DNA of 64,000 bases from Escherichia coli O157 typing phage 13: the sequence record KP869111. One strand, written 5' to 3'. The notes under the pieces were generated by a model. That model was not told the origin of the DNA. It searched no databases and saw only the letters and a program-made list of their open reading frames with translations. Each line of letters begins with the position of its first letter. Positions within the stretch are counted from its first letter, which is position 1. The translations under genes and the position numbers were made by a program. Positions 34,881-35,336 of the stretch are shown here, one piece after another.

Positions 34881-35336
34881 TTATTTTAGATCTTCGGCCC
34901 AATCTAGTTTTAAGGGTTCTTTGTATTCACGGTCGAGAATAACCGGAATAGCTACATCACCACTGAATGATAGTTGGCCAACGTTATATGATAACGTTAT
35001 ATGTGGAGTGTAGTCGTCGAAATCATGAGTAGCACCTAAAGCTCGTGCATACTGATGACGACATCTAAGATATTCAGAATCAAGAACTAAAACCAGTACA
35101 GCGCCGTCGTCAGTTTTCCATACCTCAAAGTGTCCTGATTCGGCAACAGAATAACTACCACTAGATGTAGTATATGGTATGTTTACACGTGAATAACAAA
35201 TTGTTGAATGAAGCTTTTCACGTGGTACTGGATTAGGAATTCTTAATTTGCGCTGGAGGTCTTCCAGCGCATCAAGTGTTAATTCCGAAAATTTAGCTGC
35301 GACGTAGAGGCCTTGTGAAAAGTCCTCAAATTTCAT
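34881..35336 (-). CDS. 57B: 2H phosphoesterase 57B (Acb1-like anti-CBASS cyclic-oligonucleotide nuclease)
   Basis: 151 aa; two H-x-T/S-x motifs (LHSTICY and PHITLSY) diagnostic of the 2H family; position between ipI and 57A as T4 57B. Confidence 0.8.

Follow-up and report, generated by a model that had tools for sequence, protein, structure and literature searches.

The gene at positions 34,881 to 35,336 of the window, i.e., of the entire 64,000-nucleotide stretch of Escherichia coli O157 typing phage 13 DNA analyzed here (record KP869111), raises the question of whether its small product acts on RNA ends or on cyclic oligonucleotides, the signal molecules of CBASS. In public records its orthologs are mostly labeled 'RNA ligase' or 'hypothetical protein', with one record reading 'cyclic phosphodiesterase'. 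A preliminary description of the sequence had named the gene 57B and considered its product a 2H phosphoesterase of the Acb1 type; this assignment is backed by Pfam, by the solved structure 7T26, by identity with the T4 protein, by the functional residues and by synteny. With high confidence, 34881-35336 on the minus strand can be regarded as the Mosigvirus (RB69-group) ortholog of T4 gene 57B, encoding Acb1. The gene and its neighbors are as follows:

34516..34803, minus strand: ipI (internal protein I), directly downstream of acb1; Pfam IPI_T4, E = 1.3e-50; phrog_4363
34881..35336, minus strand: acb1 (gene 57B), a predicted 2H phosphodiesterase of 151 aa; ORF, Pfam Acb1, PDB 7T26, T4 57B and residue check
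35336..35566, minus strand: 57A (tail-fiber assembly chaperone), directly upstream of acb1; Pfam GP57, E = 5.6e-22; phrog_1002
35571..36305, minus strand: gene 1 (dNMP kinase), the upstream synteny anchor; Pfam DNMK, E = 3.3e-96
36359-36949, minus strand: gene 3
37046-37867, minus strand: gene 2

According to the ORF listing, acb1 occupies precisely 34881..35336 of the minus strand, with an ATG start, 151 codons and a TAA stop. The preliminary description agrees with this listing and with the translation in the position, length and strand of 57B and in both peptide motifs, KLHSTICY (H43-S44-T45) and TPHITLSY (H112-I113-T114). The reading frame is intact, in contrast to that of the BASEL phage Bas43, whose acb1 was reported to be nonsense-mutated, and its GC content of 0.40 is in line with that of the neighboring genes and of the window (0.375). 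The two HxT/S motifs were rejected as evidence by themselves. The pair is weak alone, since, when the protein was shuffled 20,000 times with its composition preserved, 14% of the shuffles had two or more such motifs; it is homology (E ~1e-58) that decides.

The protein is a member of the Acb1 family. It matches Pfam PF23474 (Anti-CBASS protein Acb1) with E = 1.3e-58 and 197.3 bits, the cut-off being 27 bits, over profile positions 1-144 of 144, and this is the sole Pfam family found above threshold. Among solved structures, Erwinia phage FBB1 Acb1 (7T26/7T27; E = 1.1e-58, residues 9-148) is the best match. Alignment to T4 Acb1, suggested as a check in the preliminary description, revealed 129 identical residues out of 151 (85%) and zero gaps in a BLASTP comparison with T4 57B (NP_049750.1, from NC_000866), with both catalytic histidines, H43 and H112, retained. 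Hobbs et al. 2022 (PMC9117128) bear out the same description in calling T4 57B the founding Acb1. An NCBIfam search with the protein returned no matching model. The single-sequence AlphaFold2 model of the 151-aa protein was unusable (mean pLDDT 39, pTM 0.29); a 2H phosphoesterase fold that is compact and has a C-terminal lid is strongly implied by comparison, because the protein shows 63% identity, with E = 1.1e-58, to the crystal structure 7T26.

In PHROGs the protein is placed in phrog_755, still under the older name 'RNA ligase', which is repeated in RefSeq for the orthologs of T4 and of E. coli O157 typing phage 6. Taken literally, the name would make it a LigT-type enzyme working on RNA ends as a 2'-5' RNA ligase or a 2',3'-cyclic phosphodiesterase, e.g., in tRNA repair, and not a cyclic-oligonucleotide nuclease. 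The location of the T4 gene near a tRNA cluster speaks for such a role, as does a weak match to Pfam 2_5_RNA_ligase2 (PF13563); this match is, however, below threshold (E = 0.013, 15.9 bits vs a cut-off of 27), and the match to the Acb1 family exceeds it by more than 50 orders of magnitude. When Pfam was searched at a permissive E-value, the one further hit was PF13563, below threshold and confined to residues 70-131; PF02834 was unreported. The name is older than the characterization of 2022 and reflects only membership in the 2H superfamily; the label borne by the orthologs derives from this older PHROG name. Moreover, there are zero tRNA genes in the window, the protein keeps every one of the residues that stack on bases or read adenine and are specific to the binding of cyclic nucleotides, and the T4 ortholog degrades CBASS signals and is needed on CBASS hosts. 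The 'RNA ligase'/LigT identity, whose only match was the sub-threshold one with E = 0.013, was rejected, and we judge it extremely improbable. The weak PF13563 match is in keeping with Acb1 forming a branch of its own among the 2H phosphoesterases.

The assignment to Acb1 can be followed down to individual residues. In the T4 protein, Hobbs et al. 2022 (PMC9117128) distinguished the active-site tetrad H44, T46, H113 and T115, the base-stacking aromatic residues Y12, W74, F107 and W147, and E141, which contacts adenine N6. All nine of these residues are kept at equivalent positions in the protein encoded in the window, offset by one residue at the N-terminus. Its catalytic tetrad consists of H43, T45, H112 and T114; by T4 equivalence, the base-stacking residues are Y11, W73, F106 and W146, and the adenine-contacting one is E140. 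The protein was also aligned with those of T4, FBB1, Acinetobacter phage Acj9, Aeromonas phage 50AhydR13PP, Vibrio phage Va3, Klebsiella phage KP15, Vibrio phage phiKT1024 and Cronobacter phage LPCS28, i.e., nine sequences from eight genera of Straboviridae plus an unassigned Vibrio phage. Within this alignment identity to the protein from the window drops to 29%, and only 17 columns are invariant, among them Y11, H43, T45, H112, T114 and E140.

The closest relative of the 33000-38000 segment, as found by megablast, is E. coli O157 typing phage 6 (NC_041864, Mosigvirus, RB69 group), with 99.9% identity and 100% query cover. A tblastn search with the acb1 protein detected a homologue in 1469 phage records, 137 of them at 99% identity or more and 576 at 80-90%; among the matches listed, the latter band consists mostly of T4-like coliphages, e.g., AR1, wV7 and RB68. 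The identification of acb1 corrects a mis-annotation ('RNA ligase' or 'hypothetical protein') common in this group of phages.

Gene order points the same way. The sequence ipI, 57B, 57A, gene 1, gene 3, gene 2 in the window is that of T4, and the ipI-57B-57A-1 arrangement noticed in the preliminary description is borne out both by the comparison with T4 and by the Pfam and PHROG matches of the neighboring genes. By annotation, the order gene 3, gene 1, 57A, 57B is also kept in T4, Acj9, 50AhydR13PP, Va3 and KP15; in LPCS28 the products are unnamed and the ORFs are spaced as in the gene 3/1/57A/57B block. The ipI product is an inhibitor of the GmrSD restriction enzyme. In T4, ipI and acb1 were presented as a small anti-defense pair (Hobbs 2022, PMC9117128), and by analogy the two genes may form such a pair here as well.

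The TAA stop of 57A and the ATG of acb1 share one base (TAATG; the junction reads GAAGAAGAATAATGAAA). The co-transcription and translational coupling of 57A and acb1 are suggested because the stop and start overlap by this one base. A late-promoter-like octamer, TATAAATA, is located inside gene 1 (35921-35928, minus strand) and could drive 57A and acb1; across the window such octamers number 12 vs 7.7 expected, which is not above chance. Scans for sigma-70 promoters and terminators around acb1 gave results at shuffle background.

The region on the other side of ipI is less uniform:

32970-34454, minus strand: three ORFs just downstream of ipI, of 163 aa (membrane protein, phrog_2203), 228 aa (phrog_1843) and 101 aa (phrog_9798)

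The 228-aa ORF had no Pfam or PDB match. The three ORFs are common at this place to only 3 of the 295 matching phage records, and most Mosigvirus genomes align only from ~34468 onward; 32970-34454 looks like a variable segment adjoining the putative anti-defense pair of ipI and acb1. In typing phage 6 an extra ORF of 264 nt, FDG80_gp154 (4516-4779 of the compared segment), lies between the 101-aa ORF and ipI. It is missing from 34455-34515 of the window, which corresponds to an indel of ~330 bp relative to typing phage 6. In the record of NRG-P0074, one of the features covered by the 5-kb match is listed as a '2OG-Fe(II) oxygenase'. ARAGORN, run over the whole 64 kb, found no tRNA genes, whereas in T4 a cluster of eight tRNAs is located ~1 kb downstream of ipI.

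What the acb1 product does in the infected cell can be proposed on the basis of the characterized proteins; its chemistry, substrate range and anti-CBASS phenotype are inferred from the experiments on Acb1 of T4 and FBB1. Most likely it is a metal-independent 2H phosphodiesterase that would linearize 3'3'-cGAMP, cUA and cA3 and thereby blunt CBASS; a T4-like activity is very likely because of the 85% identity and the conservation of all functional residues. This small enzyme of the 2H fold would be made during infection and would act on cyclic di- and trinucleotides in which one AMP or more is present (3'3'-cGAMP, cUA, cAAA, cAAG). The substrate would be held in a U-shaped pocket shut by the C-terminal lid, with the aromatic residues stacking on the bases and the glutamate reading the N6 of adenine, and the HxT/HxT tetrad would provide acid-base catalysis. 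By rotating the adenosine, the enzyme would enable its 2'-OH to attack the 3'-5' bond, and the cut, 3' of A, would proceed via a 2',3'-cyclic phosphate intermediate to a linear product. With the second messenger removed, the CBASS effectors would stay inactive and the phage would evade abortive infection.

For T4 these consequences are documented: its Acb1 keeps the effectors Cap5, Cap4 and CapV from being activated, and T4 lacking acb1 replicates >300-fold worse on CBASS hosts. Nine further diverse homologues of Acb1 all cut 3'3'-cGAMP and cAAA (Hobbs 2022, PMC9117128). A literature search found no paper testing an Acb1 of the RB69 group (Mosigvirus), and none was found in Hobbs 2022 (PMC9117128). 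The acb1 gene described here is a textbook ortholog of a characterized anti-defense enzyme, its biology is already known, and nothing in it goes beyond Hobbs et al. 2022.

The same enzyme may be a liability to the phage in some hosts. Panoptes guard systems fire on depletion of cA3 or related nucleotides, and Tevenvirinae expressing Acb1 are restricted by them (PMC13577387). The phage is predicted to resist CBASS systems signaling with AMP-containing cyclic di- and trinucleotides and, under guard systems such as Panoptes, to meet the opposite outcome, i.e., restriction; both predictions are useful with regard to host range when therapeutic phages are being picked. That Panoptes systems sense Acb1-expressing Tevenvirinae through cA3 depletion also lends some credit to another explanation, in which the protein is a true Acb1 with its main target in another pathway (cA3 of type III CRISPR, or further signals consisting of cA3 or cyclic dinucleotides) or with a shifted substrate range. 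As many as 22 of the 151 residues differ from T4, so the fine substrate preference could differ too. The substitutions touch none of the nine residues with an annotated function, however, and with all nine of the diverse homologues in Hobbs 2022 cutting 3'3'-cGAMP and cAAA, the activity is stable well beyond 15% divergence. We consider such a change of target or substrate range very improbable, and an Acb1 directed primarily at CBASS signals remains the preferred reading.

A second predicted anti-CBASS gene lies elsewhere in the window:

28661-28906 (mechanical ORF to 29074), minus strand: clear homologue of T4 Vs.4/Acb2, 81 aa; PDB 7UQ2, E = 1e-30

The longer form of this ORF matches Pfam Acb2_Tad1_hairpin with E = 4.2e-17, and relative to T4 the homologue lacks 8 residues in its central part. 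Judging from these matches, the phage encodes both a signal-degrading (Acb1) and a signal-sequestering (Acb2) anti-CBASS protein, as T4 does. One may speculate that the 22 substitutions relative to T4 Acb1, all outside the annotated residues, shift its range or kinetics, e.g., in such a way that Panoptes decoys are spared while CBASS signals are destroyed, which together with the Acb2 sponge would amount to a tuned two-layer counter-defense; this idea is very improbable.

The preliminary description had also linked 57B to a cluster of nucleotidyltransferases in the window. The ORFs concerned are:

16426-17370, minus strand: ORF, phrog_1435
17433-18392, minus strand: ORF, DUF7235
18448-19443, minus strand: ORF, phrog_2257
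19506-20033, minus strand: ORF, phrog_2274
20518-21519, minus strand: ORF with weak sub-threshold AAA/STAND-NTPase and HTH matches
21915-22904, minus strand: RlaP-family nucleotidyltransferase; Pfam RlaP PF10127, E = 5.9e-13; phrog_388

The link was left unsupported: there is one RlaP-type ORF, with neither a CD-NTase signature nor paralogy. The ORF at 21915-22904 is the only recognizable nucleotidyltransferase in 16426-22904 (minus strand), and it is of the Pol-beta/RNA-repair type rather than a CD-NTase; a CD-NTase signature was not seen anywhere in this region. The ORFs from 16426 to 21519 belong to unrelated PHROG families, none with a known function, and blastp among the ~320-aa ORFs of 16426-22904 detected no paralogy (best E = 0.09). 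As a separate observation, 'Endoribonuclease RegB' is noted on four ORFs of typing phage 6 (gp137, the adjacent YP_009593125, gp143 and gp144) that match 27296-28305 and 29489-30333 (minus strand) of the window, which suggests either duplicated or split regB-like genes or an over-propagated annotation.

Among the known systems, the protein is closest to Acb1 of T4 (57B, NP_049750.1; Hobbs et al. 2022, Nature 605:522, PMC9117128), with which it shares 85% identity over the full length, the tetrad, the ligand contacts and the slot between ipI and 57A. It differs from T4 Acb1 in being one residue shorter at the N-terminus and in its 22 substitutions. The overlap of 57A and acb1 is 1 nt (TAATG) here vs 4 nt in T4, and beyond ipI the window carries three ORFs uncommon among its relatives at this place, whereas T4 carries trna.2-4 and tRNA genes. 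With FBB1 Acb1, solved in the apo form (7T26) and in complex with 3'3'-cGAMP (7T27), the protein shares 63% identity over residues 9-148, including the HxT/HxT tetrad, the tyrosine, the glutamate and the tryptophan of the C-terminal lid; in FBB1 a phenylalanine, still aromatic, takes the place of W73, and an indel of one residue is located in the beta-hairpin after this position. Its resemblance to the LigT/2'-5' RNA ligase superfamily (PF13563) consists of the two HxT/S motifs and a weak match at the superfamily level (E = 0.013), which is below threshold; unlike LigT, Acb1 forms a separate family, compact and phage-specific, that has a cyclic-nucleotide pocket. The T4 Vs.4/Acb2 sponge (7UQ2) serves the same goal, the removal of CBASS signals, but unlike Acb1 it does so with an unrelated fold, sequestering the signal rather than hydrolyzing it.
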